Of a DNA stretch of 62,507 bases, positions 15,070 to 48,889 are shown in pieces. The notes below the pieces were generated by a model. The model worked only from the letters and a program-made list of their open reading frames with translations, had not been told where the DNA came from and did no database searches. Source of the stretch: Vairimorpha necatrix (lineage: Eukaryota). Position 1 is the first letter of the stretch. Each line of letters opens with the position of its first letter. The position numbers and the translations under genes are program-made. The DNA is taken from assembly GCA_036630325.1 (NCBI GenBank), contig CP142737.1:930001-992507 (forward strand). The letters are read 5' to 3'.

Positions 15070-15470
15070 AAGGATGACAAGTATATATATTCAAACATCA
15101 AGAATAAGAATAAAATCATGAAAAAATAAATTATCTAAAATTACATAATTTTGATTTTCTTTTTTCATTGATGACAAGTATATATACACATTTTTAAAAA
15201 ATAAGAAGCTGATAAAAATCATGAAAAAATTTTTGTCTAAAATGTCATAATTTTAGAGTTTTGAAATTTTCATTTTATAAATGAGGAAAATTATATATAC
15301 ATATATATATTTACAATAAGACAGAAAAAAAAATCATGAAAAAATAATTAGTCTAAAATGAAATAATTTCTAATTTAAGAGATTTAAATTTTAGATTTTT
15401 CAAACTTGACAATATATATACAAATGTAATAAGATGAAGAAGAAAATCATGATAAATAACTGAGGAAAAT
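15070..15470 (+). repeat. Degenerate tandem repeat, ~105-115 bp, about 4 units
   Basis: aaaatcatgaaaaaat...tctaaaat recurs near 15113, 15217, 15330 and 15444. Confidence 0.65.
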
Positions 15471-18400: not shown

Positions 18401-20499
18401 TTTTTAAGTTAATAAATTTGAATATAAAACTGCAACAGCAATATATATAGATTAAATAAAAAAAATATTAGTTAAAAACAAAATAACAAACCGTTTTCTA
18501 TTACAATTTTATAATAAATAGTGTAATATAAGAAAATTTACATTTAGAGTATTAATAAACTGAAAATGAATGTTTCTTATATAAATTAGAAATGAATATT
18601 GTATGAATAATAAGTAATTTTGTATAAAGTAGCTTTTAATATTAAAATTTAAATTTATTTTTTTTGTAGAAGACACTGAATATGTAGAACATTTTGAAAA
18701 TATTTATGAGATATGTATGCATGTCTAGTCCTTTACCTATAAGATTAACGTCCCTATAAAAAAAAACATGGTAACCAAGCCTTTAAAACAATGACTTTCT
18801 AATTTCGGGTTTTTTGAAAAAAATTTTTACGTTCCCCGCACGAAGAAGTTTATTTTGGAAATCATTAAAAAGTTTTATGTAACAATGAGCTTAAAAAAAT
18901 GAAAAAATAGAACTTTACTATTAATGAACAACTTCACTAACAACTAGAAATGAAATGATGTTTAAATCGACCGTTTTTCAAAAAGAGGCCAGTTTTTTAA
19001 AAAAAAACATTACTGATGCAGTGTTTATTGATATTTCTTAATGGTGAATTAACGACTAGAAGGATTTATCTAGGAGCATCTTCTTTTCTTTTATACGATC
19101 CTATATCCCCAATTTCCAAAATTCGAATAACTGGTGGTCAAAGAAGTTTGTAGAAAGCAGTTTCGAATTATAGTAATGTTAGAAGTCGCGTAAAAGATTC
19201 ATTAATGATAAGTTCATTCGTGTAAGTTAATTATGTACATGATTTTGCAATTTGAAATTTATTTAAATCTTAGTTTCTTATTAGCAGTGAATCTTGACGA
19301 TGTAATATAAAGATAGATAAAAACATATGTTCTGAAACGAAAAATTTTACAATATGTACTTTCTGTAGTTTGTATGAGAATTTAAATCGGTATCTATCAA
19401 TTAACTACCTACAATAAACGTATGAGGTTAAATTCAATCTTAACAAAAATCTATGTAATGGTTCTCTCTTATCTTACATGGAAAAAAATAAAAATTAAGA
19501 AGAGAGTAATATTATGTAACAAGAAGAAAATGTCTAGAAATATTTTCTAATGAAGGATCATTAACATTTACGGAAAATTTGTAACAATCGAAAAGCGAAA
19601 TTATGAGATAAGAAATTTAGCATATAATAAAATTTGAAAGTTTGTGTAATAACTAAATGATGTTAATAGTAAAATTTTCTCAACCACATTAATAGCATGC
19701 TGACAAAGCTTCTATATCGGATTTTAAAAGGCTTTATTAGTTATCATACAATTTTAGATAATTGTTTAGTAATAAACAGATAGCAAATTATCATATAAAC
19801 TGTTTACAGTTATAATTAAGATGAATCAGTAGAACAAAATATGTCAAATGTAAAGTTATAAATAATTAGAACATTATATAATTACCAAATTAAAGACTGT
19901 CATTCTATTATAATGAATAATTTTAATGAGTTTAATATATAAAAATATCATAAAAACGTATATATGATATAAATTTTTAAAAATAAATAAGAATGATTAT
20001 TTTATATATATCAGTAAAAATCTAGAATTTAGTATAAAAATATATTTAGAAAAAACATGTTGGTCATTTAAGAGAAGGTGTCTAGTAATTTTGTTGAAGG
20101 TAATGAATTTTGCTTTTTTTTAGAGATAAAGATAATTAACAACGAAGTATAATACAATAAATAATAATAAAGGAATTAATCATCAGATCAAGGCTTATAG
20201 AATTCTAATATTCTTTATCGATGCTAGGTTCATATTAATCTTGTCTATTATATTTAATGAAATTAATCTTTTTGTAATATTTAAGTTTTTATATTTTGGG
20301 ATCTGAAATTATCTTCATTTAAAGAAAATATTTGAAAAAAAAATATTTTAAATATATTATGATTAAACAAAAATGATATATAAAAAAGTAAATAAGATAG
20401 TTTATAGAGTATAATAAGGAAGATATATTTACATTTGAACAAAAATAAAAATAATATTAATATTAATATTGTTGTTTTGTATAAAATAAAAAAAAGGGT

Positions 20500-20722
20500 T
20501 AACTATCAAATACTCTAAGAAAGTAGAAGCGTACATCAAGATGATTAACATAGAAGGCAAACGAAACCATTCCAACAGACTACCGAAGAGATGTACATGT
20601 TCCGATTTGAAAAGGACTAAGAACCGAGAAGCTGCCCACAAACAGGAGTTGCTAACGCGGAACCTATTCAGAAGATACTAGAAATATTAAACACTATTAG
20701 CATATCCCAAATGATTCATTTT
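20500..20722 (+). mobile_element. 3' fragment of RLE-type LINE (family B)
   Basis: aagtagaagcgtacatc...gctaacgcggaaccta...attcatt, homologous to 32290-32572. Confidence 0.75.
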
Positions 20723-23700
20723 TTATAATAGAAAAATATTAGTAATTATGTTGTAATTGTTTGTAAAGATTGTTTATATATATTATAACTTCGGAATTTA
20801 TTATGTTATTTTATGAAAAAAACAATATTTTTCATATTTAGATATAATTTAATCAAATAAACAAGAATTAAATATATGACAAATTAATAATTTTTTTCTT
20901 TATGGAGTATCTACACATCTTATATATCCGGCATGAAGTCTGATCCGAAGTTGAAGTGGTGAGTCTAAACTAACATATTGATTTATATTATTTGTTTGTT
21001 TTGCTGCTCATCGGAATTGTGAATCAGGGGTAAATTCCGTTTAAATAGTCAAATAGATTAACTGTCAAACCCCATGAGATGTAAACAAACAAACAAGAAA
21101 CCGAAATTCTACTAAATACGTAGTACTTCATGTGACATGCACTTTTCTTCTTTTTAGTTTGTGAATGTCAAACATGTCCAATGTTTGTTTACAATGCTCT
21201 GAGATGTTTGACAGCACCAATAATCATTATTTAATTGGAAGCCGTATCGTCAGTATAGGTCTGCAACCTCACACATCTGAATAAATATTAATATTGTTAT
21301 TTCGAATATTATTTCTTGCACAATTTAGTACATTTTTTTTTGGAGGTTGCCAACGTATGTATCTGAATAATTAATTTTTTAAGAAATTTAGATTTATTTG
21401 TCTTTTCGTATGAGTACGTAAGTATATAATTTGCTGTATATAAAATAATTATGAAACGCATTATGTGCAGAATCGCCATAAAAATAAAAAATTGAAGTAA
21501 AGTTAAACATATTAAATCGCCTTTGGACACAATACGTGAATTAAACGATATATTTATTTTTTTTGCAAGACAAAAACATATTTTTAAAAACAAGTAAATT
21601 AGATTCTTTCAAAAGGAAATTTAAACACAATCATTGCGTAATTTAATTACAAAAATGTCTGACACTATATACCAATCATTAAAGACATATAATTTAGTAT
21701 AACAATATATTTGTTGAATAAAATAGGACATATTTATATACAAGAAAAAAGATTATAAATCTATCTTAAACAATTTAGGTATATGCATTAAAGTATTTAA
21801 TAAAATGTTAAAAAACAAAACTTGATAAACTAAATACAAAGGTTTCATAGAAGTGTGTATTAACGATTACTTAATAAGGACGGTTTCAAAGTTTACTCTG
21901 TCAAATATTCACCAATAATACAACAAAAAATGAAAAATTTACAATATGTTTATCCATGCAAAATAAATAACCTTTAACTTACGCAGCTAAAAAATTATTA
22001 CAATAAAAGAAAAAATTTAAAAAATAATTTTGTATATGAAGGGCAAGGAATATCTATGAAGCAAGTCCACAATCATAAAGTTATTAATAACGAAATATTT
22101 TTAGCCTTCTAACTTAAAAGTAGCAAGGTTTTATCTGTGAATAACAGAGAAATAAATGAAAAATAAGAAAGAGCATATTGGTTAAAGAAAAAAATATCTT
22201 TTAAATTTAAAACGAATTCTACATTCAATCTAAATTATATCATAGGTAATAACAAGATAATTGAAATTTGATCTTTCGCCTTTTCTTTTGGTATAAGTAC
22301 GAAAGCAAACAAATAAAATTATTTTACGATCAAAAATAGAATGAGTAAGAAGTGATACAAATAATATTCATTTATTATAACTAGATAGTAAAGGGATTAT
22401 AAAAAGATATACATATGATTCATACATGTTGCTTTTCAAGATAAATACAAAAGAATTTAAAATAAAGATATACGATCAAGATATTATATGAAATACAATT
22501 TTCTTTTATATTAAAATCTACCCAAGATAAACCAAAATAAATCCCAATATTGCATATAGTATATTTTAAATACAATTAAAACAAGTAATGAAATTTTTAA
22601 TTATCTAGAACATATCAACGATTTTTTTAAAAAAAATTATACTAAAAAATCAACTATATATCTTTATATATGACCAATATGTACACGTTATTAAGTATAA
22701 TAATTACTAATGGTAAAAAAACGAAAACAAATATTATATAAAAGTTTTAAACGAATTTCGATTAACCTTGTATATTACATTTTTTTGATTTATAGAATTC
22801 TAAACAAGTTTTAGTTTTAAAACATTGTAAACTTTTTAAATCGAAGTTGGTAAAAAACTAATGTCACTAATATTAATTTGTTGTTTACAATCATATTGAC
22901 CACACAAAATTAGAAATTATGACCAAAAAATTCAAAAAGTAAAATCATTAATACTTTTATCATATTTATAAAAATATATTATTTTATTAATTTCAAATAA
23001 ATAAGAACAAATCAATTCAAAAATCTATCGGTTAAATATTTGATAATCGCTCTTTTGTTGTATATAATACTTTCTAAATCCGTAAAGTATAATATTTTTA
23101 TATAATAATTAGTATAAAATTTAAGTATGAAGATAGAAATATTATAAAAAGAATTCATTTACGAAAGAAAAAAAAATTCTAAATTCATTCAACAATTATC
23201 GTGAAATTATATATTCATTAAGAAAATCATTTATTTAATGTATAATTAGAAGAATTAAAGAAAATTATCAAAAATTAACAATATAAAATCAGACCTATTC
23301 ATTGTAAAATCGTTCAGTAACGGTAAAAAATATTTTACTTAAAAACAACATTTATGTTAAAATTTTAAAAATCCTAGGGAAAACCTACTTATATACATAT
23401 TCCATATTATAATATAATAAGAAATAATAAGTAAATTTTTAATTATGAATAATTAAATAAAAACAATAGCACATACAATTTAATACAAAGTTGTTGTAAA
23501 TAAAACGTATTCGAGATTTTGAAAAAGGCGTCGCATATTCCAAAAAAAAAACCAAAAATACGGGGAGAGGGAATAGAAATGCATACAAATCGAATACAGT
23601 TAATAACAAAAATAGAATTAATTATGAAATGCTATATTTTATAAAAAATCAGATATATATAATAGTTACACGCAAAAGGAATATATATTTCAAAATTTAT

Positions 23701-26700
23701 ATATTTAAGCAGAAAATAATTTAAATTATAATAAAGAGTAATAACATAAAATAAAATGTTTAACACTAGCTTAATTTAAATTTAAAAACTTACTTATGAC
23801 ATGTTAATACAAGATAAATATTTTTCAATAATAATACTATATAATATTTCACCTGGACGTTTTCAAGATTATTTACAAAAAAAATAAAATAAAAGTCTAA
23901 AAGTTAGAATTGGATATATTAAATATTAACAATATGGTAATACTTCGAAACAAATAAGAATCTTAGAAAAAACACCTAAATAATATTTATATATCGTTAG
24001 TCTCAAAAATTTAAAAGTATTCTTAAGAAATTAAATTTTTAGAATATATAATAATTCATTTACACATATTTAAATAAAAAATAAAATTTTTTATTATTTA
24101 GCAAAAAACCGAAATATTATTAGTTAAAAGACTAAACTTAAAAAATTCCTCTTATAAAGTAAAAAATTTTGCTCTTTGTCTTATAATTATCAGATATTTA
24201 GAATTTTTGAATCAAAAATTCAAATAAAACCGTCATAGTCAATATTTTTGAAGTAAAATTGAAATTTGATTTTGAAATTATGTTTTGTCTATAATTCAAT
24301 AAAATGCGTTAGATTAAATCTAAGTATCTTAAGGGCAAAATTTTTTTTTACTTTAATATAAATTTTATAATACACAAGGATTTATCTACAAGTAAAATAA
24401 ACATAATGTCAATAAAAATCTTTAAAAAAAAATATATTTCAAAATGCAATTGTAATAAAGATAATTGAGGTTAATATTACAAAAATATTTTCAAAAGAAA
24501 ATATATTTAGAGTAGTAGGATAACTTTTTTTTAAATAAACGTATTGGACTAAAACTCGTTTTGAAAATGCATATTTTCATCCAGAATAGATATAAAAAAC
24601 ATTCAAACTAAACGCTCAAATAATTTTAGATAAGTAGAAAGAAGGAATTTTTCATACAATTAAATTTTCACGACTAATTAAGCTAAAAGTTTCAACAACT
24701 AAACGAAAAAATATTTTCTTATCACTAAATACAATTTTTTATTTTAAAATTTCGCTTTTAATAATGTACATACGGCTGATTAAAATAAGTAATTGTTTTA
24801 GAACATATAACGATTTTTTTTTAAAAAATAATATATCAATCGAAAATTTAAAATGCAATATATTACACCTACATGTTAAACATGATTATATATACAACCT
24901 ACATGAGAAACATATGATTCAATAATGAAAAATTTATAAAAATATTAAAAACAATCTTTTAAAAATTTTTATATTGTTGTATTTCAAAAGAAACCATATC
25001 AAGGAGGGTTTTAGAAAATTATATTTTAAAGTTATTAAATTACAATCAATATTTCATAAAGTTTTATAAATGATTTAAATCATTCTTATAGTAAAATAAT
25101 CAAAACTAATTATCGCAAGGAAACATTGGAAAGTAGTTCTTATCTAAAAACTTCATTTTTTTATGCCTAACTTAAGTTTTTAAAATTATTATAAAAATGT
25201 AGCATATATAAACCAAATAATATCAAGAAAATTCATAAATAAAAATTTAAGTCTCAAAGAAACAAACAGACATACAACGAAAATAAAAAATAAACATATA
25301 TAGAGGAACACAACGAAAGGCATTTCATTCTGTTATCATTTATTAAAACGGTATTTTAAAATTTTTGGTTATAATCTGTAAAAAAATTATAAAATACAAA
25401 AAATTATTTCAAGGGAAATAATGATATATCATGGAAATAATAATAAAAATGAAAATAAAACATATTAAATACAAATTAAAAGATAAGATAATTTATATTC
25501 ATACAAATTGTAAATTTATACACAAAACTAGGCTAAAATGAATTTCGTATTTCTTCATATGAATTTTTCTAGTAAATATCATATATTCCACGTATTTATT
25601 ATTTATACTAAAATTATGATAAAACTAAAATTAAAATAAATACAGAATTAGTAATTTTATTGAAAAAAAATTTACACTAACCGAAGAATTTAAAAATATA
25701 AATCAATAAGAGCTAATAAGGGTTAATAAAAAGTATAAACAAAACCCAATGCAACTAACTAATAGATATTTTTTTATAAAGAATAAATAATGTAAGAGCG
25801 TATAAATTAAAAAACAAATCTTATCTTTAATAATGACAGAAAATATTTTTATGCATAAACCCAATTACATATTAAACATAGATGCGGTTGACGATTTCTA
25901 ATAATTATTAAACTATAATTAATTTAAATATTAATTGATAAAAAAATTATAATAATAAATTGATAAATTAAATTTTAATTATTAAAACAAAAAAATCTTT
26001 ATGAATTTTTTTGGAATAAGCATTTTGGTTTTCGTAGAATGAAATCAATCTAATGATTTAATTAGAAAATAAAATTTTTTAACAATCCAAGAATTGGTTT
26101 TATCATAAAAAATAACATTTTAACATAACACATTAAGTAAAACATTTTCATAGAGAATGTTAAGTTACTTTTAAACTATTCGCAATTTTTTACGTAATAA
26201 ATTTGTATATACAACATATCTGAATTGCAAAAAATTTATCAATATTAACTGGCTATCAATAATATCAAACTGGTTGCTTCATAATTGAAATTATATGAAG
26301 ATCAAGCAAGAAGAAAATCTAACGGTTATAAAAGAAACTATAAAAGTATAAAAAACATATCTAGGGTATTATGATCATATAATCAAATATATTTTTTATA
26401 GGATGTATTTTTCAATTATCCAATAGTTTTTCTCCCTTTTATTTTTAAAATATTTTATTTTCTACCATAAAAAATTGAATCCCAAAGAGAACATAAAAAA
26501 TAGACACAATATCATTTGTAATTATAAAAGACTTCCTGAACAGTTGGGCAAATACATAGATAAATAAGATTGTACATTAGAAGAAGCCGCATCCCTATGC
26601 AGCAGCCAAGTAGATTTAAATATTCATAAAAAAATTCAAAAAAAACAATTTTTTTCTATAATTTTTTATTCTATAAAAATAAATTAAATCATATTTACTT

Positions 26701-27144
26701 TCATTGATCTATTTTAATATCACATAATTTTATACTGAAATATTCAAATGTAATTAGTTATTACTATTGAATTTTCAAACAAACACTGGAATCTTGTCCT
26801 TAAGTTTCCAAATTATTAAGTCCTTTTACTTTCTTGGAATAGTGATTCAATTTTATCATTCAAAGTGGTTATTTTGAGCTTTCCTAAAAGGTATAATCTC
26901 TTGTGTCTGTATATATGCGATAGTACAGCATTCGAGATTTAAGTTATTTGTATAATATCCCTAAAATATTATTTTTTAGTATAATACGAATATATCCAGT
27001 AAGAAATATGTTAAAACACAAAAATGACCTTTTTTACAATAATATATATTTTAAATTAAAGAAGTAATTTCATACTTTAACAATATATTATAACATAAAT
27101 TTATTCGCAGAGTTACACCAAAAAACTTTGTGTTTTAATTATAA

Positions 27145-30100
27145 TGTTAATGTTGAACCTCCTATAAAATAAATGTAAAACATGGCAAACACAAAAGACG
27201 AAAGGGTACAAGTGAGACCTGTGTTTAAGAGAAGAGAAAATTACTAAAAGAAGCTCAGAGAGTAGAAGCAATCATCAGAATGCAGAAAGATGTAAAAAGA
27301 AGTGACAACGAAGCAGTCGATAAAACAAGTAAGTACTGAACTTCAAAATTTTATTGTTGATAAAAATTTAATCAGTATGATAAATTGGAATGATATTATT
27401 AATGAAATTGATAAATTAGTTGTTGAAGAGGAAGAGAATAAGAACAAGGAAAAAATAATGAGTAGAGAACTAGAAGATATGGTAGAGTGTATGAAAGAAA
27501 AATTAAAAAGAAGATTATAAGATAAATGACTATACTGTATCAGTGCCAGGAAGAAACTTTCAATATCAAAGACGAGAAATACATTGTTTTATATGTGGAA
27601 GAATTATACAATTAGTTAGAGGTTGTATGGAGCGTAAACAAAGACAGGAAGAGAATAATGAAAATAAAAGTGTTAAATATTTGGCTAATTTTCACTTTAT
27701 CCCCCCCTTACCAATATAAATACAGAATTTTTTATTTTTAGCCCTGTTTTTTAAAAGTCGAAGCGTCCAGAGCGGAAAGGAACAGAGAAAAATTTACATA
27801 AGTAAAAAAAGGTCTTAGAAATATCTAATTTGAACATAGTTTATGAAAAATATATTATTTAAACCAATTTAATAATGTTTTCTAATAAACTATGAGTTAA
27901 ATAGAAGTCTAAATTTGTAAAAATATGTTTTAGCCTATTGCTTTCTTTTGTCATTATAATTAATTTTTGCCAAAGATAACCATGTTTATACTTAGTTTAT
28001 GTTGTTTAAAACAGATTCTAGGTTTGGTTATTCTTAGTTTGGTAGTATATTTATTAGTCTTGTTTTTTAGGTTTTTATTGGTTTTCTAGACAAACAAAGT
28101 AAAAATAATGTTATATTTATGCTCTTTTAAGAATTATTGAATCGTATAGAATGTCAATTTATTAATATATGTTATATTTTAGCTCCAAAAGTAAAATATT
28201 ACATGTTTGGAAAATTCTCTAATTCTTGAAAAATATTCATTTACAACAGCAAATAAACCTTATAAATATTGTTTATACGGAGATTTCGTTGTTATACATT
28301 GCAATGTACAATAAAGATAAATCTTGATCAATAATTGGAAGAAGGAAATTTTTAAAAAATTGAAAAAAAAATGAAAAAACAATTGTTTTATTTTTGGTAA
28401 ATATGCTATTTTATTACAACTTTATTTTTTTGACTTTTGCTCCTTCACATTTTTTCCGCTTCGAATTTCGAAAAAAAGGGATATTTTTTAAAAATTCTTA
28501 ATTTATATTGGTAAGGGGAGGATAAAGTGAAAATGCTCCAAATATTTTGGCATTTATGATAATAGTAAAATGAAAATATTAAAAGGAAATGATTTTAAAT
28601 TGAGACTACCAGTGGAGATAGAAAGAGAGAACTCAAGAAACAGTTTTTATTCAAAAAATACAAACCAAGATAAAAGAAGAAAAAATATTAATAAATATGA
28701 AGAATTGGAAGGAAAATTTCCATAGGTATTAGGAAAATACAAAGGGAAAATAAAATGCTTAACAGGGGGAAATATTCTATCAAAACAAAACAATGAGTGA
28801 AAGTAGTAAAAAAAAATATTCCTTATAAACTCCGAGAAAAGTTAGAAAAGTATATTAAATATTATAAAGTATAGGTATTATCAGAAGGACAAAGAGCGAA
28901 TGGAGAAGCGCAATGAAGACATAGAAAAATTTTATAGTGAAGTACAATTGAGAAGCGATTTGATGGCTTTAAACGAACTGGTTTAAAAAGATCCGTATGA
29001 ATTGCCATTGATTAGAGACATTATTGAAGCAACGCAAGGTTCTAATTTATTTATGGTTATAGACCTAAAGGAAGGATTCTATCATATAGAAATTGAGAAA
29101 GCTCAAAAACATAAGACAGCTTTTAGATAAATGATAGAGTTTACGAATGGGATAGCATGGTAATGAGATTTAACAATGCCCCATATTATGCTCTGAGTGA
29201 TGAACGGAGTTTTAGATAAGTTTAGAGGCAAGATTGTTACGGTGTACATGGATGGTATTATAATCATTCAAGAGATAGTAATATACACAAAAAATTTTTA
29301 AAATAAGTAATTCGAAAATTTAACGAATTTGGATTAAAAGAAAGTTAAAAAAAATACAATATAAAGGAGAAGTAAAACTACTTGGAGTATCAATTAACGA
29401 TGAAGACATTTCACCTAACAACATTAAAAAGCAAGAGATATTAAAATACAGAAGGCCTGCTAACATAAAAGAGCTTAAAAAATTTTTTTTTTTTTGGGGG
29501 GGGGGAGGCAGGCTAGTTAAGAGATTTTATTTCTAATTAGCTTATCGGACAGCACGTCTTACAGAAGCACTAAAAAAAGATAGTATATGGGAATGAGCCG
29601 AAGATATGGAAAGAGCTTTTATGGATATCAAAATGGGTTGAAGATTATGAAAAAATGAGAAATAGTAGATAGTAAAAAAATGTATAGAGTAAGAACGGAT
29701 GCATGCAATACGGGAATTGGAGCTATACTATTGCAAGAAGACAAGGGAGGTGGATTCCGATCAATGGGCATCATAAATGATAACACCAACAGATAAAAGT
29801 ATACGTTTAGTGAAAAAGAGATGATGGCAGCGTTATTTGAAATAATGAAATTCGAGTCAAATTTGGGAGAAGTAAATTTCATTAAATGACAGATCATAAA
29901 GGACTGGCCGAGACTAGAAACAAATCGTTTTTTAATAATAACAGAATTAATAGATGGATAGAATATATATAAGAGTTCGATTTTACTAATGAATATGAAA
30001 AAGGAAAATTCATGACGGATGTGGATGCTCTTAGTAGACAATTTAAGAATAACGAAGTGTAAGAAAAAAGCGAAAGAGAGAAACGGAAATCAAAAACAGA

Positions 30101-31171
30101 TGAATGGAAAATAATAAAGAGCATGGTTAAAAGAGAAGGTTAAGACTATAAAAGTTTTTAACAGGAGAAATTAATAAATACAACACAAAGAACTAAGAGA
30201 GACAGAAATTCGTAGAGTTCACGAGGAATTAAATCATCGTGGAGTTAAGGGAACACATTATAAGATTATACAAAGATTATCTTGGCAGGTATGAAGGACC
30301 AGATAACCACATCGCTTAAAAATTGTGAAGTATGTAGCATTAATAGCAGAAAAATGACCGGAGGTTGCAATTTTGTAACAATATTTAAGAAATTAGAAAA
30401 AGTAGCTGTAGACGTAATTGATATTGAGGAAAAATAAAGAGACATGCTATTAGGGATTTACCACTTTACAAGAAGAGTATAGGGCGAAAAGATGGAAAAA
30501 CTGGGAAGTGATGTTATTACGAAAATTTTAGCATTATGGATATATGAAATGAATGCCCAGATGTTATATTACGGATAACGGTATAGAATTTGTCAGATAA
30601 AAGTTTGTATCTCCGTGTAAAGAAAACGGAATTATACAACGGAAAGTAGGTTTAGAAGCTCATAGGTTTAATTGAAGAATAGAACGATGTATTTGAACAA
30701 TAAGGGAATCGATGATCAAACAAAAAGAAGGAAACCCAGAGGAAAAACTAGAACAAGCTGTAAGAACCTATAATAACACTCTACACACAGCGATTAAAAA
30801 ACACCAATGGAAGCATGTAAAGAACAAGGAAAAGAAGTCTTTATTGAAAACGATAAAAAGGGTGGGTATGCAAGTAATTTTAACAAAGGCATAGAGAAAA
30901 ATTTGAAGTAGATCAGGCTGTGTGAATCGCAAGATAAAAAACTTGGGTAAATAGATGAAAAGTACAAAATGAAGATTTACAAGTGTCGGTAAAATATTCG
31001 GAAACTATAGAATAATTCTTATTTTGTAAGGACTGATATCGTAAGATATATTAAGAAACGACATTATGACCTAAAAGATTTTAAAAATCAATAATTAGAA
31101 GCTTGTAACGTGAGACTACCCGTCTGGAGAGGGTGTTGGGGTTGAACCCCCTATTAAATAAATGTATAACA
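27145..31171 (+). mobile_element. Degenerate Ty3/gypsy element with 38-bp LTRs (interrupted by a MITE)
   Basis: Broken motifs CFICGR, YELPLIRDII, IDLKEGFYHIEI, HKTAF, RTDAC, ELNHRG, CEVC, TDNG, YNNTLHTAI; repeats at 27145-27182 and 31134-31171; TSD TATAA; TGG after the 5' repeat; purine tract ggagaggg before the 3' repeat. Confidence 0.9.
27683..28539. mobile_element. Merlin-like MITE (family M1), copy 2
   Basis: GGCTAATTTTCAC...GTGAAAATGCTCC, 8-bp TSD AAATATTT (27675-27682, 28540-28547); empty site in the duplicate near 58070. Confidence 0.92.
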
Positions 31172-31319
31172 TATAATCATTAATCTGAAAAAAAAGACTT
31201 GAATTATAAAGATAGTTAGATAAATTTTTTATTTTTATTTATTTAAGTTACATATTGATTAAAATGATAAATTTTTAAACAAAATATTCAGGAAGGTTTG
31301 AGGGCTAAAAGCTAACGTG

Positions 31320-31345
31320 TTAGGAACGTTAGGTAGGTAGGTAGG
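31320..31345 (+). repeat. Interstitial telomeric remnant
   Basis: ttagg-aacg-ttaggtaggtaggtagg at the position equivalent to the telomere junction at 60841. Confidence 0.9.
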
Positions 31346-32289
31346 TGTATCTGTTATATTAAAAAATGTAAAGTTTGATGAAGAGAAAAACTATACTCTA
31401 ATTTATTTTTGAATTCTAGCCACAAAATTAGAATATGTTGTACCGAAAGCATTATATACTTTTTCTATATTCTATAAATAGACTTTAAATCGACTCTTCA
31501 ACATTAATCAAAAATTTATCCAGAGAAGCCTAATAAAGAATAGAAAGAAACAAATAATAAGTTAAATCATACAGTAAAATATACTATGACAAGTTTTTCG
31601 CAAATCAATTTTTAATTTTATAATTACGCACTTTTATTCGAACATAAAATGTTATTTGAAAACATTTAAAATAAAAAAATAAATTAGTAATTTTTTTATC
31701 CAACACATGACAAGAACAATATTTGTTTTGTTCTTCGTCACATAGAGTCATATACTAAGATCTAAAAGACTTATCAATTTCATAAAAAATTTGTAATATA
31801 TCAAAATAAATTTTAAAAAGAAAACTTATCGCAAATTGTTTTCAAATTTAGCATTAGAACTTCATAATATAGGCATAATTTCTCAAAGTCAAAAAATGAT
31901 GTTTATACAAAAAGGTTTACAATTAATAATTATTAGAAAATTATCTAGAATTAAAAGCAATTTTTTAGATTAAAGTTTTCTTCTTTATAAGATGAGTTTA
32001 GTTTTTTATTTAAAAGTTATTTAAATATAAAAATTAATATTTCTTTATAAAAAAATTTCAGTCATACGAAAATATTAAAATATACAAATTTTAATAATTT
32101 AATAATAGTATATCAATAAATATATTAAATAATTAAATCATTAAGAACAAAAAAAACCTTTTTATATGTACAATTTGATATCATTTGTCTCAATTCAATA
32201 TTTTATAAAGGATCAAGCATATTATCATAGATAAATTAAAATGAAAAATATAAAAAAAGATTTAATATATGGTTTTATAACAGAGAAAT

Positions 32290-32572
32290 TTCCTACTTAA
32301 TCACTTGGGACGGTATCGTGACTAAGTTCCACAAATCAAATACCACAAGACTTGGAATCCCTAAGAAGGTAGAAGCGTACATCCAGATGATAACGCTAAA
32401 GAAGACGCTAGAAAGCATTCTCCGGACTACCAAATGAGAGATGACGAAGCCGTTGTGGAAAGGACTTTGGAGCCACAAAGCTACCTTTATACAGGAGACG
32501 CTAACGCGGAACCTACTCCTGTAAAACTATAAATATAAACTACAATAAGCATACTCTAATTAAATTCATTGA
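32290..32572 (+). mobile_element. 3' fragment of RLE-type LINE (family B)
   Basis: Reads YLITWDGIVTKFHKSNTTRLGIPKKVEAYIQMITLKKTLESI, then a 3' UTR ending attcatt. Confidence 0.8.
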
Positions 32573-35500
32573 TTAAAAAAAGATGAATATTTATCAAAAT
32601 AATTAGATTATTTAAATGAAATTATGAATCAGACGAATTACTAAAAATAATTTAATATTAATATAAACGGTAAATATATAAAACAAGACACGGAATAAAT
32701 TTAATTAACGTAAATAATTATACTTATCATAAAGTATTATTAATAAAGATGAATTTTAGAATTCCAGATTTTGTTATGTATATAACTTTAGAACTACAAG
32801 ATAAAACAGATTTCTAATAAAGGGATATTTTATATCTACCAATAAATTATAATCGATTTGTCAAACAAAGTGTTCTAGCACATCTATCAAATAAATTCTT
32901 TAAACCAAATAATATATTTTATGTAAAATTTACATAATATCTTTAAAATTCAGAGTTTATTAGAAATAAACAACCAAGATACAACAATGATAATACAAAC
33001 TGAAATCGCTAGAATTCAAAATTACTTATTCTAGTACCACAATTAATCTTTTGATATTATTGACAAGTCTATATATATTCAAATATTTCGGTTATACATA
33101 AAATAGATAGAATACTTTTTTTGTATTAAAATAACAATCCCAAATATTAATATATTTAGATCTGCATTAAATCCATCTTATCATCAAATTAAACGTGAAT
33201 ATTAAATAGAATCCTAAAAATATAAATCTTAGGCCCCAAATTATGTTATTTTTCGATTCTACTAATATTTTATCAATATCACATTAAGACTCAACTATTT
33301 CGCAATTAGAAGCAAAGTATCTATTAATAATCGCCTTTTTTGTAAATTTAATATTTTTAAAAATTGAATTCGTTACTAAAATATGATCACAAAGATCTTA
33401 TTTATATTTATTAAATTTATTTGATTCAAAATAGAAAAATTTTAAAAATTCAATATAATGGTATAAATTATATATAAAGCTGAAGAATATATAATATTCA
33501 AAAACATAACTTTTATCAAAAATTTTATTAAAACACAAAACAAAAAAAACTAGTTACTTACAAAAAGAAATTTATTGATTTGTTTTAGCTATCACGAAAA
33601 ATAAAAGAAGTGTAAACTAAAAGATTTAATAAGTATTATTAGTTATATATTGCCTTTTTTAGGTTAATGCGATCATATTCAACAAACTATTATTACAGTT
33701 ATATAAAAATTCAAAATTCAACATTTATATTCCTTTTATAAAACCGTATCATTTTTACGTACTATCATGATTGACACACCTCAGGCTTTCCAAAATCCTA
33801 TCAATTATACATACGTATTCACAGCTTTACGGTTCTCACATATAGGTTCATAAAATAATATATCCAACAAATTACATCATAATAATAAAAAACTAAATTA
33901 AATAATGTTTGCTAAAACTTGTTATTATGATTTTTTTACAATAAGAATTAGTTCAAATTTATAAAATAAAAGTTTTAATACTTTAATAAGACATAAGATT
34001 TTTGAATTTAATTGTTTAACGAAATAGTGTAATGAAGTAAATCATAATGAACATTGTGTAATGAACATAAACCTTACATAAAGAAATATATATTCAATAA
34101 ATATATATTTAGGATAGATAAAAATAATATGCTCATGTAATGATAAATTAATATAGACCACAAAGTAGTGCTTTAAATATAACTTTAGTATGTGATAAGC
34201 ATACAACTGATAATTTATTTTTTTTCCTTAAGATGAAGTTAAAAACAAATATAAAAACCTACGTAGTTAGAATTTGGAGAATTAGTTTTTTGATGATATA
34301 GGTAAATGACTGCTATAGATAAACATTTTAGATTTAAGATTCTTATTTAATAATTTGATTGATCCAACAAAATTTAAAATAAAAAGCAAAATCAATATCA
34401 TATGCTGCATTTTATAATTTATTTTAGTTATCCATATAAATTTTTAATAGCAAAAGATATACTACAACTATACAATTAAATACACCTTACCTTCTAGTTC
34501 ATGTTACTGTGTAAATACAAAGAATCAAAAAGTAGAAGATCTCATTATTTAACTTTATTATATTGAAATTCCTTAAGTTTTCTAATATAATCATTTAAAA
34601 GACAAATAACTATATAGATACAAGTTAGGGAAATAAAAAAAATATCTTTGAAAAACAATGTGTTCTAGGAAATAATTAACAATAAATTTATAGAAAATGT
34701 AATAATAAATTATCCTTCTCATAAATCTAAATTACAAAATAAAATTTTTCTGATTCAGATATAGCTTACATATATATATTAATAATAAAATACTTTACAA
34801 ATGTTATATATGCTTGTCTTTGCAATCGTTTACTGAAAGTTTAAACAAATTTTTAAATTTATCCCATAAAGAGTAATTTCTTTTCATATCGCATTACCCT
34901 ACTAATTCGTTTATAAGTTTTATTTTCGAAGGATAGTATTGCAGAACATTTTAAAATTCTTGTATAACACTGGTCTGTATAGATGACACAGTCCAAAATT
35001 TAGCTTGGGTCTATTGCATATATTCTCAAATATTACATTATTTAGATTTTAAATTACGTTTCCTAAATAAATAGTTGTAAACTAGTCGACAGAACCTTTG
35101 ATCATAGATTATATTGCATTGTTTTCATAATATCATAATTTATTAAATACAACGTATGTTTGAATAATATTTATATTAGTTTAATCGAAACAAGCTTTTA
35201 ACTTAGCAAACAATTATGAGTATACTTTATAACTAAGTGATATGATAATATAATAAAAAAAAAGGGATGGAATTTAATTTTGTATATTAAGTCAATTTTA
35301 GAGTTAACTGAAAAAAACTTTATTGAGAATCGTTTTTCTTGTAGGTAAGGTAAGTATGTTAGGTATTTTTTATTTAGAAAAAGACCAATTCTTAACTTAA
35401 GAAACAATTTAAGTCCGCAAAACAAAGGGATGAAAGTATTTTCTATTTATTTATATTTTTGTCTATTTAGATCATCAATTATGGTTTGTTAGTCCCTTAA

Positions 35501-35995
35501 AGTTTTTAGATGATCGATGTATGAAGAAGTTGTGCCAAAGAATTAACCATAATTTTTAATAGTGTAAATATAGAAATTCAACCTTTTAAATTGTACTTAT
35601 AAAACAATAATATACTATATACACTATGAAGCTAAATTATTAAAAAATCTTTAACATAACGTATTTTAACAACAAACAGAAACATACTGTATCGAAATAT
35701 TGGTTAATATATAAAAATCATTGGGGTACTAAGAAAAACAGAACTTATACTCTTTGAAAAAAACAATTGTAAATATGTATATGTATATATAAGAAGGATA
35801 ATGAACTTGAAAGAAGAAGAAAATTAACTTTACTTATGAACAAAAAAAATTAACATGTATAGAATATGTATGTAAAGTAAGAAGTATTGGTTTTTGATGA
35901 TATTTTTATAAGAAAAATAATTTCAAATTTTTTTATAGATAAGTAACTATAGCTTAATAAACATATAAGAATGAAATAACAACGTCGTAAAATTT

Positions 35996-36826
35996 AGAAC
36001 GCCTAAGACTACATATAAATATATATTATTGGTATATAAGTGAACGTTGTGTGTCTTTTTTTGTTTTTGAGCCATATAAAAGATTTGTTATTTTTCCATC
36101 TCTTTCTTGTATATATATATATATATATATAAGAAGACAAATCTTGCAAAATATGAAAAAATTAAGAACAGCTGAAAATGCATATAAATTCATATATTTG
36201 TTATATAAGTACTTTTTTGTATCTTTTTTTGTTTTAAAGCATTTATGAAATTTGCCATTTTCCATCTCCTTCTTGTATATATATATAAGAAGACAAATCT
36301 TGCAAAATATGAAAAAATTAAGAACATCTAAGACTACATATAAATATATATTATTGGTATATAAGTGAACGTTGTGTGTCTTTTTTTGTTTTTGAGCCAT
36401 TTAAAAGATTTGTTATTTTTCCATCTCTTTCTTGTATATATGTATATAAGAAGACAAATCTCGAAAAATATGAAAAAATTAAGAACATCTAAGACTAAAT
36501 ATAAATCTATATTATTGTTATATAAGTGACACTTGAGCATCTTTATTTGTTTTTAAAGCATTTATGAAATTTGTCATTTTTCCATCTTATTTTTGTATAT
36601 ATATATATATAAGAAGACAAATCTTGAAAAATATGAATAATTAAGAACAGCTGAAAATGCATATAAATACACATCATTGTTATATAAGTAACACCTGGGT
36701 ATCTTTTTTTTGTTTAAAAACATTTATGAAAGTTGCCATTTTTCCATCTCCTTCTTGTATACATATATAAGAAAACAAATCTTGAAAAATATGAAAAAAT
36801 TAAGAACAGCTGAAAATACATATAAT
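35996..36826 (+). repeat. Tandem repeat, ~160-bp unit, 5 units plus a partial
   Basis: Units start near 35996, 36164, 36320, 36481, 36643, 36802; core tataagaagacaaatcttgcaaaatatgaaaaaattaagaaca. Confidence 0.9.
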
Positions 36827-38198
36827 TGTACGGTCTTATGAGATAACAAGGAATCTGTGTATATATATATGCGTACTTATTAGCTTATATGATTTATTTT
36901 TTCTTTAAGTAAATCAAAGTATGTCTTTGTTGTGAAGATTTTAAAACAGAATGATTCTAAAAATTTCTAGTGTAAACGTGGTTGTTTTACGATTTAACAT
37001 TCTAACATAAGAATAAAATTGAAAATGAATACTAATTGGTAAAAAATCTTATTATAATGATTAAATATTTTAAAAACTCCCAGAAACAATCTCTATTTTA
37101 ATTACAATTACATCTAAATATATATACAAGTCTTTAAGTATCAGCAATATTTCTAATTTTTTTGGCTAATGGAAAGTATTTATGTATATTTGTACATGAG
37201 AGAGATAATGAACACGAAAAAAGAGAAATTGACATCTCATAAAAACTAGTAAAAATAACATTGTATATATGTAAGTAGATTGTAAAGTTTTTATTCTAAT
37301 TAAAACCTTTATTATATACATGATTTAAATTTTTTTAAAGGGTATCTATCTGCATATATATATATATATAAAAGTACAAAATAAAAACTTTAAATTCAAG
37401 AAAAATATGCATAAATATTAGTGCAGTGAATTTAATTGTATTGAAATAATAGAACATTCATTTGGTAACAAATAATATATAAGTATTTTTATGTAATTAA
37501 AATATATAATTATATAATTTTTGCCGGTATCAACACATAGAATAAATAGATTTTGAATTAAACAAATCAGAATATAATTTGTGTATAAATCAAGAAAAAA
37601 GATTTTTTGAATTTTAAGATGAATTTTTATTATTGGAATATATCGAGGTGCATTAGAAAGAATAGAATCGTGGATAAAAAACAACCAATACCCCATTGGA
37701 AAACAATAGTGTATAAAAATACAACACTTTAAAAAAATATAAAACGAAATTTAAATATAATGAAGATTTTATATTTTATTTATTTAATACGAGGGAGCGA
37801 TTATATAAATGTATCGTAAATAAACACAATTTCTATTAAGAATAATAGAAAAATCTCATATGTACGTATATATGAATTTAACATTGAAATTTTCTAAAAA
37901 TTATAATTTTCATACTTAATGTAGATAGTATCGTAGCCAATTAAATACTGATCAATCATATTCTCACAAATTGGCAGATTTAATTGGCTACAAAAAGTAT
38001 TAAGAAAAATTCCAAAAGGGGGAATGGAAAATAAGAATAAAGAAATTGACATATTTCAAATAAATAAGATCTTATAGAATCATGTAATTATATTATATAT
38101 TTATATATTATTTTTTGCATAATTCAATGAGAATTTCTAAAAAAAATAAGCTTGAATAAGAATTGTCATATTTACAAAAATTATGTTATGTCTAAATA

Positions 38199-38384
38199 AC
38201 ATCCAGATGATCACGCTACAAACCATTTCTCTGGACTAATGAAGGAGAGAATACGAAGCTGATGTGGAAAGGACTATGGAGATAAGAAGCAACCTACAAA
38301 CAGGAGGCGCTAACGCGGAACCTATCCTTGTCAAACTATAAATATAAATTACAATAAGCATACCCTAATTAGATTCATTTATTT
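38199..38384 (+). mobile_element. 5'-truncated RLE-type LINE (family B) with TSD
   Basis: Homologous to 32380-32572; flanked by ttatgtctaaata (38186-38198) and ttatgtcgaaata (38385-38397). Confidence 0.8.
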
Positions 38385-39764
38385 TTATGTCGAAATATAA
38401 CTATATTCCAACGATATCTTATGGTAGTATAACATAGAATTTTGCGACCCAATATAGGATATTATAAAATTAGTTACAACATCTTGATCTTAAGATATCT
38501 CATGATTTTACGAGATCAAAATTACTTTTAATAAAGGATAGTTTTTAAAAAACTTACTTTCAATATATGAATATATTGGCAAACCTGTTCGGAAATGATT
38601 AGACCACCTAGAATTAAAACGAAATATATATGTTGGAAATAGCAGACGAGTCTGAATGAAATTGCATGTTTATTAAGAAACTTTCTCTTTTATATTTAAT
38701 TCTGAAACACTGATTAGTGATAACCATATTCAATTGGACCAGCTTGTGATGAAACAGTTTGATGATTGATAAAGAGCAATGATTTGTATTTAGAGTTACA
38801 ACAATATATATATATATATATCTGATTGTTATGTTAGTATCTTTCTATTAAAGAAAATATTTTATATCTGATCGTATAATATATACTCGTAAAATCAGTA
38901 GTAGATCAAAAAAAAGTAAAAAGGATTCATTTTAAACTAATATTTTTTGTATATCTTTTATATAGAAACCTCATTAATAACAATTTCATATATATATATA
39001 TAAAATACTTTTTTGTTTAATATTTTGTTTTCGATATTTCTAAAATTTTATCCTTATACATCTATTTTAAATTAAAAGTCAATAGATAATTAGGGATATT
39101 TATGCATACTTCTTAATTAAAAATATGAATTGTTAATCGTATAGTGTTATAACACTAAATATGATAACGTTTTGAATTTTATCATTTATATCATTATATG
39201 TAAGGGACACATAAAATATTAAGCATTCTAAAGTTTTCATAAATTATCTTTTAAATTCTTATAATCATTAATTAAATACTAGAATAATCATCAAAATATT
39301 CTTGTTTTTACATATCACACAATTCAATGTTATGTATCAAATTCATCAGACTGATGTTCTATGAATAATATTAGTAAGTAGGATTATTTAAATAGTCGAA
39401 ATGTCTAAAATTGCCCTTTATTCTACGTAAAACTGTTTCTAAATAGTCTATATTTATAATTTGATCTTAATTCTAATATCCCTTTTAATAATTGAATTAT
39501 TTATTCAGATAATGCTAAACTTATATCTATAGAAGTTTTCGCATACATTCATCACAATGATTATGTAATAATCATACTTATGTTTGATTGGCAATAATTA
39601 GGTATAAATGCGATTATTAAAATCATTATTTTCTACGGACTAAAAATATATGACCGGAGAAACCTTATGTTTATCAATAGATTATATGACTAAATTTAAG
39701 TAAAGCACATGTAGCGGAAGTGCTTTTAAAAATTATAGTAAAAAGCTGCAATTACAATTCTTGT

Positions 39765-40076
39765 GACAGCACGTGTTTTTTCACTGTTAATGTAATTTTT
39801 TTTTACTTTATGCTCATGATCTTTTTTATCAGCTAATGATTATTATAAAATTTAATACTTCGGAAATTTGAGTATACATCTGTATTCCAACTTTTCAACT
39901 TCTCGCGACACGTGGGATGCGCAAGCGCTATAAGGTCTTGTCCATTGAAGTTGGTATAACTAACGATACTCAAACTTCAGAAGTATATAATTCGTATAAT
40001 AATCATTTGCTGATAAAAAAGATCATGAGCATAAAATATAATGATTATTACACTAGCATAAAAAAAATTGACTGTC
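39765..40076. repeat. Foldback/MITE-like inverted repeat, ~130-bp imperfect arms
   Basis: tttatgctcatgatcttttttatcagc pairs with gctgataaaaaagatcatgagcataaa; pairing extends inward to ccaactt/aagttgg and more weakly outward to gacag/ctgtc. Confidence 0.8.
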
Positions 40077-40706
40077 TTGGATTATAAATTATGTAATACT
40101 TATTTTTATAATACTATATTCCACAAATCTTTTGTCATTCCAACTTAACTTATCTCTTTATTGCACCAATCCAATCTTTGATTTATCATTGCCCATAAAC
40201 AAAATTTTTTTTTTAATATTTTAGGAGGGAAATTTAAAATAAACAAAATATAGAAAAGAGCGTAGATTTTGAATTAAAAGGATTTAATAGCAACAATAAA
40301 ACAAATTTTTGTTATAAATTAATTAAAAATATACAATCAAAAACTAAACAAATATGTTAATTACTCTTTATTCAATGATCTTTATTTGAAATTTATTATT
40401 AATTTTTCTTTGTCTATAGAGTAACAACTCAATTAAAAAGATGATCAGATGGTATTTTTTGAAATACAATACGGCCTTAAAATTTTTTAAATTCTCTTGA
40501 CATTTTTTGAAGAAATTGAAAATTTAATTAAATTTTTACTAAAAATCAATCGTAATGTCAAAATAAAATATTTTTTACAAAATAATAGTTACAGTTGTAA
40601 AATTTAAAAAGATTAGGAATTCATTATTTCTAAATTATATTATTATTGTGTACATATATATTAATATTTTAAGATCTTATTTGCATTCTTCAGAAATCTA
40701 AACATT

Positions 40707-41010
40707 TCTGGAAGCATACATTCAGTCTAATGTGATAAAGAAAACTCCAGAGTCCATCTCTTTGGAACGACGAACAAGATACGATAAAGATTATGCAGAA
40801 GAAGAAGAAGTAACTAGAGCTGTAAGCGCACTAGCGAATATGGCGACTGTTGAACAAGCGATGTCGGTATAGGAGAATGAAGCTAAAAATTTGGAGTTGA
40901 AAAACATAAATTATTCCACAGAAACCAAAGTCTATGAAGAGCCGAATCTAGTGAGCGATACCGAGGGAAACTGAACAATCTAACTTTAATGATAAATTTA
41001 CTCAATAAAT
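40707..41010 (+). mobile_element. 3' fragment of RLE-type LINE (family C)
   Basis: Reads LEAYIQSNVIKKTPESISLERR; duplicate of 13206-13495. Confidence 0.7.
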
Positions 41011-41769
41011 CTTTTATATGTTGTCAACACTAAACACAAACATTGGCGTACTTACGAATGTAGTAACGACCATGGAACTTTCGTTTGATTGTGTGACCCA
41101 ACTTGACATGCCTTTCAAAACGGTTGACATATTTTTGACATCTGTCCATGTGTTGTAGTAATGTACATCACAGTATCTAAGAAAAACAAAATCTCAATAA
41201 AGAATATTAGTTAAATCACATAAATATGTTTTTATAATTTTGTATTCGAAATTATTAAAAGAATGTAGTTCATATATAGTTGTAGCAGATCAAATATATA
41301 TTAATCATATTCTTACAAATGACAGTTTTAACTTGTTGAAAAAATTATTTAAAAAAATTTACTTTAGAGGGTATGGAAAATAAGAATAACAAAATTGCCA
41401 GATATAATGGAGAAATTGAAATACGATGCCAGTAAATCTTAAATTGTGCGGTCACATATGAAAGTATTTTGTATATAATATAGGACATATACTTGTTTTT
41501 GCAGTGTAAAATGTTTACTATTTTTTAGTATAACATGTATATATATATAGAAATGTATATTTGGATCAAAGAAAATCTTATATAATTTATTTTCCAAAAG
41601 AAAGCATAAAACTAACATTGTAAATTGTTCTATTATTTGATTCATTCAGATTAATGATCTTTTAATCTGACTAATTTGAAATTTTTCTTTATGCATAGAA
41701 AGAAAAACAAAAATAAATAAAGTTGAACTATAATTGGTTTTCTTAAAGGATAACAAAAAATTAAAATAA

Positions 41770-41838
41770 TCGTGCTTGGCAGAATGGTTGCACCTTGATT
41801 TAGGATTTCGAAGGTCCAAGGTGAGATTCCCGGTAAGA
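41770..41838 (+). pseudogene. Decayed tRNA-like sequence or SINE head (duplicate)
   Basis: A-box TGGCAGAATGG, degenerate B-box ggtgagattccc. Confidence 0.45.
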
Positions 41839-42579
41839 GAAAATTTAAATTTATTTTAGTATAAAGATATCTACTGGCGGACATATAGACGTCACTAAAT
41901 ATAATATTTCAAAATTGATAGACTAAACAAATATTTTGAAAAGTATCTCTTGTATGAATTGATCATTAATTTCTTAAATACATTCACACTTTAAATTCTT
42001 ATTACATATAATTTGTCCTTCTGTGTTTCATAATACCATAGCTGTATATTCTATAGGGACCTAAAAGCCAATTATGGCACTCTTGATGTAGAAATTTATG
42101 AAGTTTGTTTTTATACAAACAAGATATAGTATAAGATGGAGATATGTTCAATTATTTCATTAAAGACAAAGAAGTTTAATAAGTTTGCTTTTAGTGTCTT
42201 TGTAGTTGAAGAGCCATCTGAGATCTAGATGATTTATATATATAATATCGACACTAGATTAAAACGATAAATCTATACAGAGGTTTTAAAATCTTCATTT
42301 TAATATATTTTTTGATTTAATGATGCGATTAGAGGCTTGTATATAAAAATAAACTCATCAAATCTAAATGGTTACGTCGGAGATAGTGCAGCGAAAGTAT
42401 TTGGTAGAAGTTAAGTGAATAATAATACCCTATATCAATTGGATTTTTAACTCAATTGCTTTTGAGTTTATGTTTAATATCATCTTCTCTTCTCCTCGCC
42501 AAAAATTTGAAATTTTAAAGTAAATAAAGGCTATAAGTCAAAATTATGTTTTTTGAACTTTTAAATTTTTAATTATTCA

Positions 42580-42990
42580 AGGATGACAAGTTAAATTATT
42601 TAAACAGCAAGAATAAGAATAAAATCATGAAAAAATAAATTATCTAAAATGACATAATTTTGATTTGTTTTTTTCATTATTGAAAAGAATTTATACACAT
42701 TTATAAAAAATAAGAAGTTGATAAAAATCATGAAAAAATATTTGTCTTACTTGCAATAATTTCTAATATAAAGTTTTTAAATTTTCATTTTTAAAATAAG
42801 GAAAATTTTATATACATATATATATATATATATACAATAAGACAGAAAAAAAATTATGGAAAAATAATTAGTCTAAAATGCAATAATTTCTAATTTAAGT
42901 GATTTAAATTTTAGATTTTCCAAACTTGACAATATATATACAAATGTAATAAGATGATGAAGAAAATCATGATAATTATTTGAGGAAAAT
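42580..42990 (+). repeat. Degenerate ~110-bp tandem repeat (duplicate of 15070-15470)
   Basis: Same aaaatcatgaaaaaata units. Confidence 0.6.
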
Positions 42991-45007: not shown

Positions 45008-45842
45008 GGCTAAAGAGAACTTACAGCCCCCGCATTTGAGGCGCTACGATTTTTTTTTCCGAACCCCAAAAATGAAGTGTAAAAAAAGGAGGAGCAAAGA
45101 AGAGACAAAAATTACTAAGCACTTATGACATTAAAAACAATAAATAAATATATATTTATGTACACAATTATATTTTAATACAAGTTTTTACAATAATATA
45201 AACCAATAAGCATTTTTTGCCCTTCTGATTTTTTAGAATTGGGGACAAAACCGCTCTCTCTGAGGGTGTTCACTTTATTATTTTGAACCCCAAAAACGAA
45301 GTGCAAAATAAAGGAGAAGCAATCATTAGTACTCAAATTACTTGCATCTTAAAACAGTAAAAATACCAAATAAATATATATTCTTATACGAAATTTAATT
45401 TAAAATAAGAATATAACCATAAAACTATATAATTCTAAATAACTTAACATATTTTAAATTAAATTTTTTGATTTAACAATCTGTATAGATCGATGAACAT
45501 TTATTAAAATTTTCTTATATAAGTAATATTTATAATTTTAATTGTTGTTTTATTATTAAAGTAGATTTTTGAAGAAAATCTACTTTCATAATAAAACAAC
45601 AATTAAAAAAAATTGAAAAAATAAGAAAGGCGAAAAAGACACAATACTTCAAATGATTATTATAACTAAATTTAAAATTAATTTTTGTATAAAATTAAAT
45701 ATTTATTTGCTATTTTTAATGTAATAAGTGCTTAGTAATTTTTGTCTCTTCTTTGCTCCTCCTTTTTTTACACTTCATTTTTGGGGTTCGAAAAAAAAAA
45801 TCGTAGCGCCTCAAATGCGGGGGCTGTAAGTATCCCAGCTCC
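45008..45842. mobile_element. Merlin-like MITE (family M2) with long TIRs
   Basis: GGCTAAAGAGAACTTACAGCCCCCGC...GCGGGGGCTGTAAGTATCCCAGCTCC, TIRs over 120 bp, 8-bp TSD TTTTATTT (45000-45007, 45843-45850); empty site near 17475. Confidence 0.93.
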
Positions 45843-48800: not shown

Positions 48801-48889
48801 TTTATAGAGTAAAATAAAGAAGATATATATACATTTGAATAAAAATATAATATAATATTAATATTGTTGTTTTATATAAAATAAAAAAT

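Follow-up and report, generated by a model that had tools for sequence, protein, structure and literature searches.

A telomere remnant buried at the edge of a duplicated subtelomeric block marks a probable former chromosome end in Vairimorpha necatrix

A telomeric seed at the junction of the current telomere

We propose that a 26-bp telomeric tract buried 31.2 kb from the end of a contig of Vairimorpha necatrix, a microsporidian parasite of insects, most likely records where the chromosome once ended, as a subtelomeric interstitial telomeric sequence (ITS) left behind when an eroded end received a terminal segment by break-induced replication (BIR) or end joining. The tract, referred to here as the seed, lies in a contig-terminal window of 62,507 nucleotides (assembly GCA_036630325.1, contig CP142737.1, positions 930,001 to 992,507 of the forward strand), which is apparently the right end of chromosome 12. 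The window denotes this whole stretch, and positions are counted from its first letter. The terminal segment would consist of a spacer (S), the distal copy of a duplicated block (A2) and the present telomere, and the elements of this layout are arranged as follows.

9847..11913, minus strand: 688-aa open reading frame (ORF), the last long ORF matching a called protein before the gene-free end
13206..31319, plus strand: proximal copy of block A (A1), 18.1 kb, without an intact gene
31320..31345, plus strand: the seed (ITS), TTAGG AACG TTAGG TAGG TAGG TAGG, 26 bp
31346..40718, no strand assigned: spacer S, 9,373 bp, AT-rich
40719..60840, plus strand: distal copy of block A (A2), 20.1 kb, colinear with A1 and adjoining the true telomere
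60841..62507, plus strand: terminal telomere, 1,667 bp, with 204 TAGG and 149 TTAGG units in irregular order

Positions 31289-31345 read ...caggaaggtttgagggctaaaagctaacgtg followed by ttagg aacg ttagg tagg tagg tagg, and the junction between A2 and the telomere reads ...caggaaggttttagggccaaaatcttacgtg followed by ttaggtaggtagg..., with the telomere running from 60841. In the pairwise alignment of the two block copies, the ACGTG/TTAGG junctions of the seed and of the telomere fall in one alignment column, and the ending that A1 and A2 share, ...CAGGAAGGTTT(G/T)AGGGC(T/C)AAAA(G/T)CT(A/T)ACGTG, is followed in both by TTAGG. A preliminary description of this DNA had placed a telomere remnant at 31320..31345, at the same junction as the current telomere, and the sequence itself, the alignment and a self-BLAST of the window all confirm it there. 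Since the true telomere also contains TAGGTG, the right edge of the seed is fixed only to within about 2 nt.

The G-strand of the seed points to the chromosome end, as does that of the terminal telomere at 60841-62507, and a regular-expression scan of the plus strand found no CCTAA-type run. Because the seed shares the orientation of the terminal telomere, the arrangement is one of head-to-tail stacking and not of telomere-telomere fusion. The TTAGG and TAGG units of the seed are the host's own terminal repeat units; the single non-canonical unit among them, AACG, is decay as expected of a tract that telomerase no longer renews. Lying 29.5 kb proximal to where the telomere tract begins, the seed bounds A1 at the homologue of the A2/telomere junction and hence at the edge of a duplicated subtelomeric block, so that it combines the three properties of an ITS of this kind: composition from the host's own repeat, an internal position in telomeric orientation, and a place at a duplicated-block boundary. 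A telomerase (TERT), VNE69_03063, is annotated for V. necatrix in supplementary table 1 of the genome paper (PMC10759460), and a seed of this repeat is therefore what telomerase would have made.

A regular-expression search of both strands of the 60.8 kb outside the telomere returned one run of at least three T(1-2)AGG units, the seed itself, where 200 mononucleotide shuffles set the chance expectation for such runs at 0.005 per window. In vertebrates, ITSs that are only a few units long are put down to repair, and the seed might accordingly be read as a tract added by telomerase during the repair of an internal double-strand break, or as a chance microsatellite, in either case unrelated to a former end. 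Short ITSs are indeed listed as a class in a review (PMC6410037), but here the tract stands where, in the other copy of a duplicated ~18-kb block, subtelomere gives way to telomere, and the chance expectation is for a run anywhere in the window, let alone at that junction; we hold such an origin to be very improbable. A metagenome pattern scan with a degenerate form of the junction motif gave no matches.

The duplication that the seed delimits was recovered by self-BLAST as four colinear pieces, at 85-88% identity, between 13206-31346 and 40719-60868; on the left the homology begins at 13206/40719, within about 10 bp. On the right, the preliminary description had homology end at 31345/31346 and 9.4 kb of other sequence follow, and both self-BLAST and alignment bear this out. 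In the within-window comparison S is a copy neither of block A nor of positions 1-13205, and its matches elsewhere in the window are only dispersed repeats of ~120-310 bp. As S is related neither to A nor to the proximal 13 kb, the structure cannot be reduced to one unit duplicated in tandem. We also rejected the idea that S is an older, decayed copy of A, since dispersed repeats of that size are all that the two have in common.

S contains a tandem repeat at 35989-36825, with 5.2 copies of 161 bp (also scored as 2.6 copies of 325 bp). Near the S/A2 boundary there is an imperfect palindrome of ~290 bp (39776-40066), which matches its own reverse complement at 75%. A dispersed repeat of ~170-310 bp, probably a MITE-like element, occurs at 1044-1346, 20515-20740, 32263-32574, 38213-38385 and 48910-49127 in both orientations and at 70-83% identity, and contigs from two public runs have loose ends at its edges.

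Divergence, transposons and coding content of the blocks

Realigned over 17,073 positions, A1 and A2 are 88.6% identical, with a K2P distance of 0.124 overall and of 0.114-0.150 by piece. Recent gene conversion between them was considered and rejected, as identity ranges from 0.82 to 0.96 across 57 windows of 300 columns and no exact 100-mer is common to the two copies. Transposable elements lie in and beside the blocks at the following positions.

12258..13205, minus strand: remnant of a DNA transposon with terminal inverted repeats (TIR), carrying an IS1595/Merlin-like transposase fragment at 12291-12716
27145..31171, plus strand: decayed Ty3/gypsy-like element in A1, with 38-nt LTR remnants and domain fragments
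27685-28544: 860-bp insertion private to A1, inside the gypsy-like element
45007..45843, no strand assigned: 836-bp insertion private to A2, with inverted terminal repeats of ~160 bp
49241..51221, plus strand: 1.98-kb insertion private to A2, with 286-bp terminal direct repeats (280/286 identical)
57533..60679, plus strand: decayed Ty3/gypsy-like element in A2, the counterpart of that in A1

The gypsy-like relics span the distal ~4 kb of each A copy, and all of their reading frames are broken. Domain fragments recognised in A1 are RVT (28987-29127), RNaseH (29659-29793) and integrase H2C2 (30178-30291), and those in A2 are zf-CCHC (57889-58068), RVT (58679-58875) and RNaseH (59195-59412). The flanking 38-nt TG..CA repeats lie at 27145-27182 and 31134-31171 in A1 and at 57533-57570 and 60642-60679 in A2; a search for long LTRs of the relic yielded these 38-nt repeats only. 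Further element signals are a PBS-like TGGCAAAC, a PPT-like GGAGAGGG and, in A1, a 5-bp target-site duplication (TSD), TATAA. The relics thus display, on the plus strand, the gag knuckle - RT - RNaseH - integrase order together with the LTR, PBS, PPT and TSD signals of a Ty3/gypsy element. Most single-fragment Pfam scores of the relics are below the gathering cut-off, and the assignment is made because the ordered domain series is found in both copies and because tblastn, with the window's own intact Ty3/gypsy element as partner, gave E values of 1e-9 and 2e-14.

The gap between the gypsy-like element and the telomere repeats measures 148 bp in A1, up to the ITS, and 161 bp in A2. Since the element lies near the junction in both copies, it would have been inserted near a chromosome end before the copies separated. 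As a separate observation, its 38-nt LTRs are unusually short, and an insertion distance of ~150 bp recalls elements that target telomeric chromatin.

The three insertions confined to one copy would reflect the time elapsed since A1 and A2 separated, with different transposons apparently arriving after the split. The inverted repeats of the 836-bp insertion (45019-45178 / 45831-45672) are 92.5% identical. In contigs of two related public runs the 860-bp insert is skipped (joint 27674->28540), and it therefore represents either an insertion polymorphism or a recent insertion. The 860-bp element has a second copy, inverted and 93.8% identical, at 7985-8844.

At the opposite end of A1, the TIR transposon ends just where the A1/A2 homology begins, so that an exchange involving the transposon may have set this boundary. 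A second copy of this transposon end occupies positions 1-385 of the window, and no target-site duplication is evident around the remnant. Further from the blocks, a Ty3/gypsy element at 2461-6160, apparently intact and recent, carries a 1,190-aa gag-pol ORF (2478-6050) that begins inside the 5' LTR; its 110-bp LTRs are identical, and it is flanked by a 4-bp ACGA duplication.

From the last gene to the telomere, ~49 kb pass without an intact gene. Nearer to A1 than the 688-aa ORF there are only transposon-remnant ORFs, of 141 aa (12291-12716) and 150 aa (12756-13208). The 688-aa ORF, which is identical to a called protein, is one of a family specific to V. necatrix and devoid of Pfam domains, and its relatives VNE69_03380, _05002, _11001 and _12002 share 82-87% identity with it. 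According to supplementary table 1 of the genome paper, VNE69_03380 closes chromosome 3, the row below it being _04001, and VNE69_05002, _11001 and _12002 stand first or second on chromosomes 5, 11 and 12; the annotated family members have spore RNA-seq counts of 728-8222 in the same paper's table (PMC10759460). By sequence and annotated position, the family marks where the coding core stops at no fewer than five chromosome ends, and it provides paralogy between these ends. A 402-aa ORF at 6189-7397 on the minus strand has a single relative, a V. necatrix signal-peptide-containing protein at 46% identity, and could represent a secreted-protein gene that is specific to the species and situated close to the chromosome end.

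The preliminary description had credited the blocks with no coding capacity, and for intact genes this stands: between 13209 and 60840 there is no ATG ORF of at least 120 aa other than one inside the 161-bp tandem repeat. It does not stand for decayed sequence, in which pseudogenised Ty3/gypsy domains are recognisable. None of the 57 stop-free segments of at least 40 aa in S matched Pfam, and hidden genes in S plus proximal A1 were rejected on the result that 0 of 108 stop-free segments (40-45 aa or more) match Pfam at E<=1e-3. No homologue was found for a 153-aa antisense ORF at 29631-30089. ORFs of at least 70 aa number 40, against 15 in shuffles, and many lie in the purine-rich retroelement relics; the excess presumably stems from the base composition of these relics.

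Proposed rebuilding of the chromosome end

The shared junction, the seed of the same orientation and the colinear duplication of ~18 kb lend support to the view, already advanced in the preliminary description, that an old telomere was capped by a block of ~29.5 kb. The order of events that we infer, together with the donor and the repair pathway, begins with an ancestral end that would have run core - 688-aa gene - A - telomere. The telomere of A1 would then have eroded, or broken down, to a few repeats, and the short end would have gained a 29.5-kb terminal segment composed of S, a paralogous A block and a telomere. This gain would most likely have come about through BIR that was primed at a different chromosome end, or else through a terminal fragment being end-joined to the short end. 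Once buried, the seed would no longer have been renewed by telomerase, and the A copies would have decayed separately while collecting different transposon insertions.

A single window is as compatible with BIR as with end joining, and the 11% divergence of A1 and A2 fits an old duplication and the recent capture of an already diverged paralogue alike. The coincidence of the left homology edge with a transposon end leaves room for transposon-mediated exchange or for insertion of a terminal fragment. The size of the gene-free end is also informative. The genome paper, in its available text, allows at most 20 kb per missing V. necatrix telomere (PMC10759460), and the ~49 kb between gene and telomere here, compared with subtelomeres of ~20 kb in the papers, fits the addition of one extra module. 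The sizes given in PMC10759460 and PMC11592040 hint that gene-A-telomere may be a common end layout.

The pieces could also have been assembled in the reverse order. The chromosome would then first have ended in core - S - A2 - telomere, and a terminal fragment of another end, namely A1 capped by a very short telomere, would have entered at a break inside the chromosome, where core and S met, which would make the seed the former end of another molecule rather than of this chromosome. The left edge of A1 is a plausible site for such a break or exchange, given that the end of the TIR transposon lies within ~10 bp of it and that the transposon shows no flanking target-site duplication; the lack of relation between S and the proximal 13 kb suits either order. 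This scheme, however, requires two joins instead of one. The relatives of the 688-aa ORF, moreover, are the outermost genes at other ends, and A1 sits just where the gene-A-telomere layout hinted at above predicts it. We consider the reverse order unlikely, and favour the capping of an eroded end in place.

Assembly error must be weighed as well, in the form of a false join or chimeric read that linked an end made of A1 and telomere to an unrelated end made of S, A2 and telomere. The assembly, 48 contigs in four pseudo-haplotypes, was made with hifiasm, and the HiFi reads behind it have an N50 of 13.7 kb; repeats take up ~50% of the tetraploid genome, and contigs were chosen from 14 sub-assemblies and then polished (PMC10759460), circumstances in which such an error could arise. 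Contigs of four public runs from related samples, two of the runs with word shares of 0.16 and 0.10 and none recorded as RNA, were compared with 22000-35900; those listed are ~230-530 bp long with 85-99% likeness, and among them no piece, joint or loose end falls at 31345/31346. Against an artefact, a 26-bp tract is too short for an overlap assembler to join, so the junction should exist in reads, and a true end would bear a telomere on the 1.67-kb scale rather than 26 bp with a decayed AACG unit. A1 and A2, without a common exact 100-mer, are not confusable with each other, and a misjoin elsewhere in A1 or S would relocate the structure to another chromosome or haplotype without removing it. 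An artefact at the junction itself strikes us as improbable, and the junction marks a place at which the published assembly can be checked.

On our preferred reading of a capped former end, the seed is today probably a scar without a required function. At most, and purely by inference from a single case, it could serve recombination, or let telomerase start afresh from it should the distal 31 kb disappear.

Comparison with other chromosome ends and the telomere repeat

To our knowledge, microsporidian chromosome-end architecture has been described mainly for Encephalitozoon. In the literature searched we met with no microsporidian example of an interstitial telomeric sequence, and the available portions of the V. 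necatrix, Nosema and Encephalitozoon papers (PMC10759460, PMC11592040, PMC10158259) carry no mention of ITSs. The seed and its blocks offer a dated, base-resolved example of chromosome-end rebuilding in a microsporidian. They extend a known phenomenon, represented by yeast Y' elements and human subtelomeric duplicons, and overturn nothing.

The preliminary description had likened the arrangement to yeast Y' arrays, and the likeness holds for the layout and fails for membership. As in Saccharomyces cerevisiae Y' arrays, telomere-adjacent modules are set head to tail with short telomere-oriented tracts between them. In yeast, TG1-3 tracts of 20 to ~500 bp are reported for 145 of 234 tandem Y' junctions, and such interstitial tracts arise and expand by recombination or BIR from short telomeres, as described in the portion of PMC13177704 available. 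Here, in contrast, only A is repeated within the window, twice, with the single-copy 9.4-kb spacer between its copies, so that no whole module recurs as in Y' arrays; the A copies have not been homogenised; and the blocks contain neither a helicase ORF nor any intact ORF, with Pfam finding degenerate retroelement domains only. The modules also differ in size, at 18-29 kb here and 5-7 kb for Y'.

A bolder reading of the same features, which we put forward as doubtful but worth stating, is that A, or S plus A, is a mobile subtelomeric module that has been stacked on eroded ends by ALT-like or BIR rescue. The T(1-2)AGG seeds would then be sites of invasion or re-healing, the module would be a non-coding microsporidian counterpart of Y', and the gypsy-like element at ~150 bp would reflect targeting of telomeric chromatin. 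This reading predicts that the number of modules varies among the remaining chromosome ends and between the other three pseudo-haplotypes, with a short seed at each junction. It is a prediction of this work that the copy number of an end module of ~20-30 kb varies between haplotypes and isolates.

Subtelomeric ITSs at duplicon boundaries are interpreted as scars of past exchanges between ends and subtelomeres. Human subtelomeric ITSs resemble the seed in sitting at block boundaries, and human blocks are paralogous between chromosome ends, whereas cross-end sharing is seen here for the adjacent gene family only, and the seed, built of T(1-2)AGG units, measures just 26 bp. In human and yeast subtelomeres, degenerate telomere-like repeats divide proximal from distal domains, according to the available text of a review (PMC6410037, citing Flint 1997 and Ambrosini 2007). 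Seeds of like orientation placed where blocks meet are the hallmark of subtelomeric ITSs in yeast and humans (PMC6410037), as they are of tandem Y' junctions (PMC13177704).

Among microsporidia, Encephalitozoon ends are described in the order telomere - TAREs - rRNA - subtelomere, and they share with the present end a TTAGG-type telomere followed by non-coding repeated DNA (PMC10158259, available portion). An rDNA-bearing end of the Encephalitozoon kind was nevertheless rejected here, on the result that Rfam families and tRNAs gave 0 matches in the window. The window has neither rRNA nor another Rfam family and no TARE-like tandem arrays at the telomere; in their place stand a decayed LTR retrotransposon and AT-rich unique DNA. 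Nosema muscidifuracis is a related microsporidian. Its telomere-adjacent subtelomeres of ~20 kb are conserved between ends and fall into two types, and it shares with V. necatrix both a composite 4/5-bp TAGG/TTAGG telomere and blocks of ~20 kb directly at the telomere (PMC11592040). The likeness is one of description, and the available part of that paper differs in making no mention of a buried seed or of stacked blocks (PMC11592040).

The terminal telomere is least regular at its proximal side, where variant units are concentrated: non-unit bases number 59 in 60841-61340, 19 in 61341-61840 and 3 in 61841-62507. The genome paper gives the V. necatrix telomere as a 5-mer only, TAACC (PMC10759460), a later comparison likewise calls it a 5-mer, and the composite TAGG/TTAGG telomere of Nosema muscidifuracis was reported as unseen in other microsporidia (PMC11592040), each as worded in the available text. 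The irregular succession of both unit lengths in the present telomere indicates that the composite type may occur more widely among Nosema/Vairimorpha species. It also points to a telomerase template that slips or is read in two registers.
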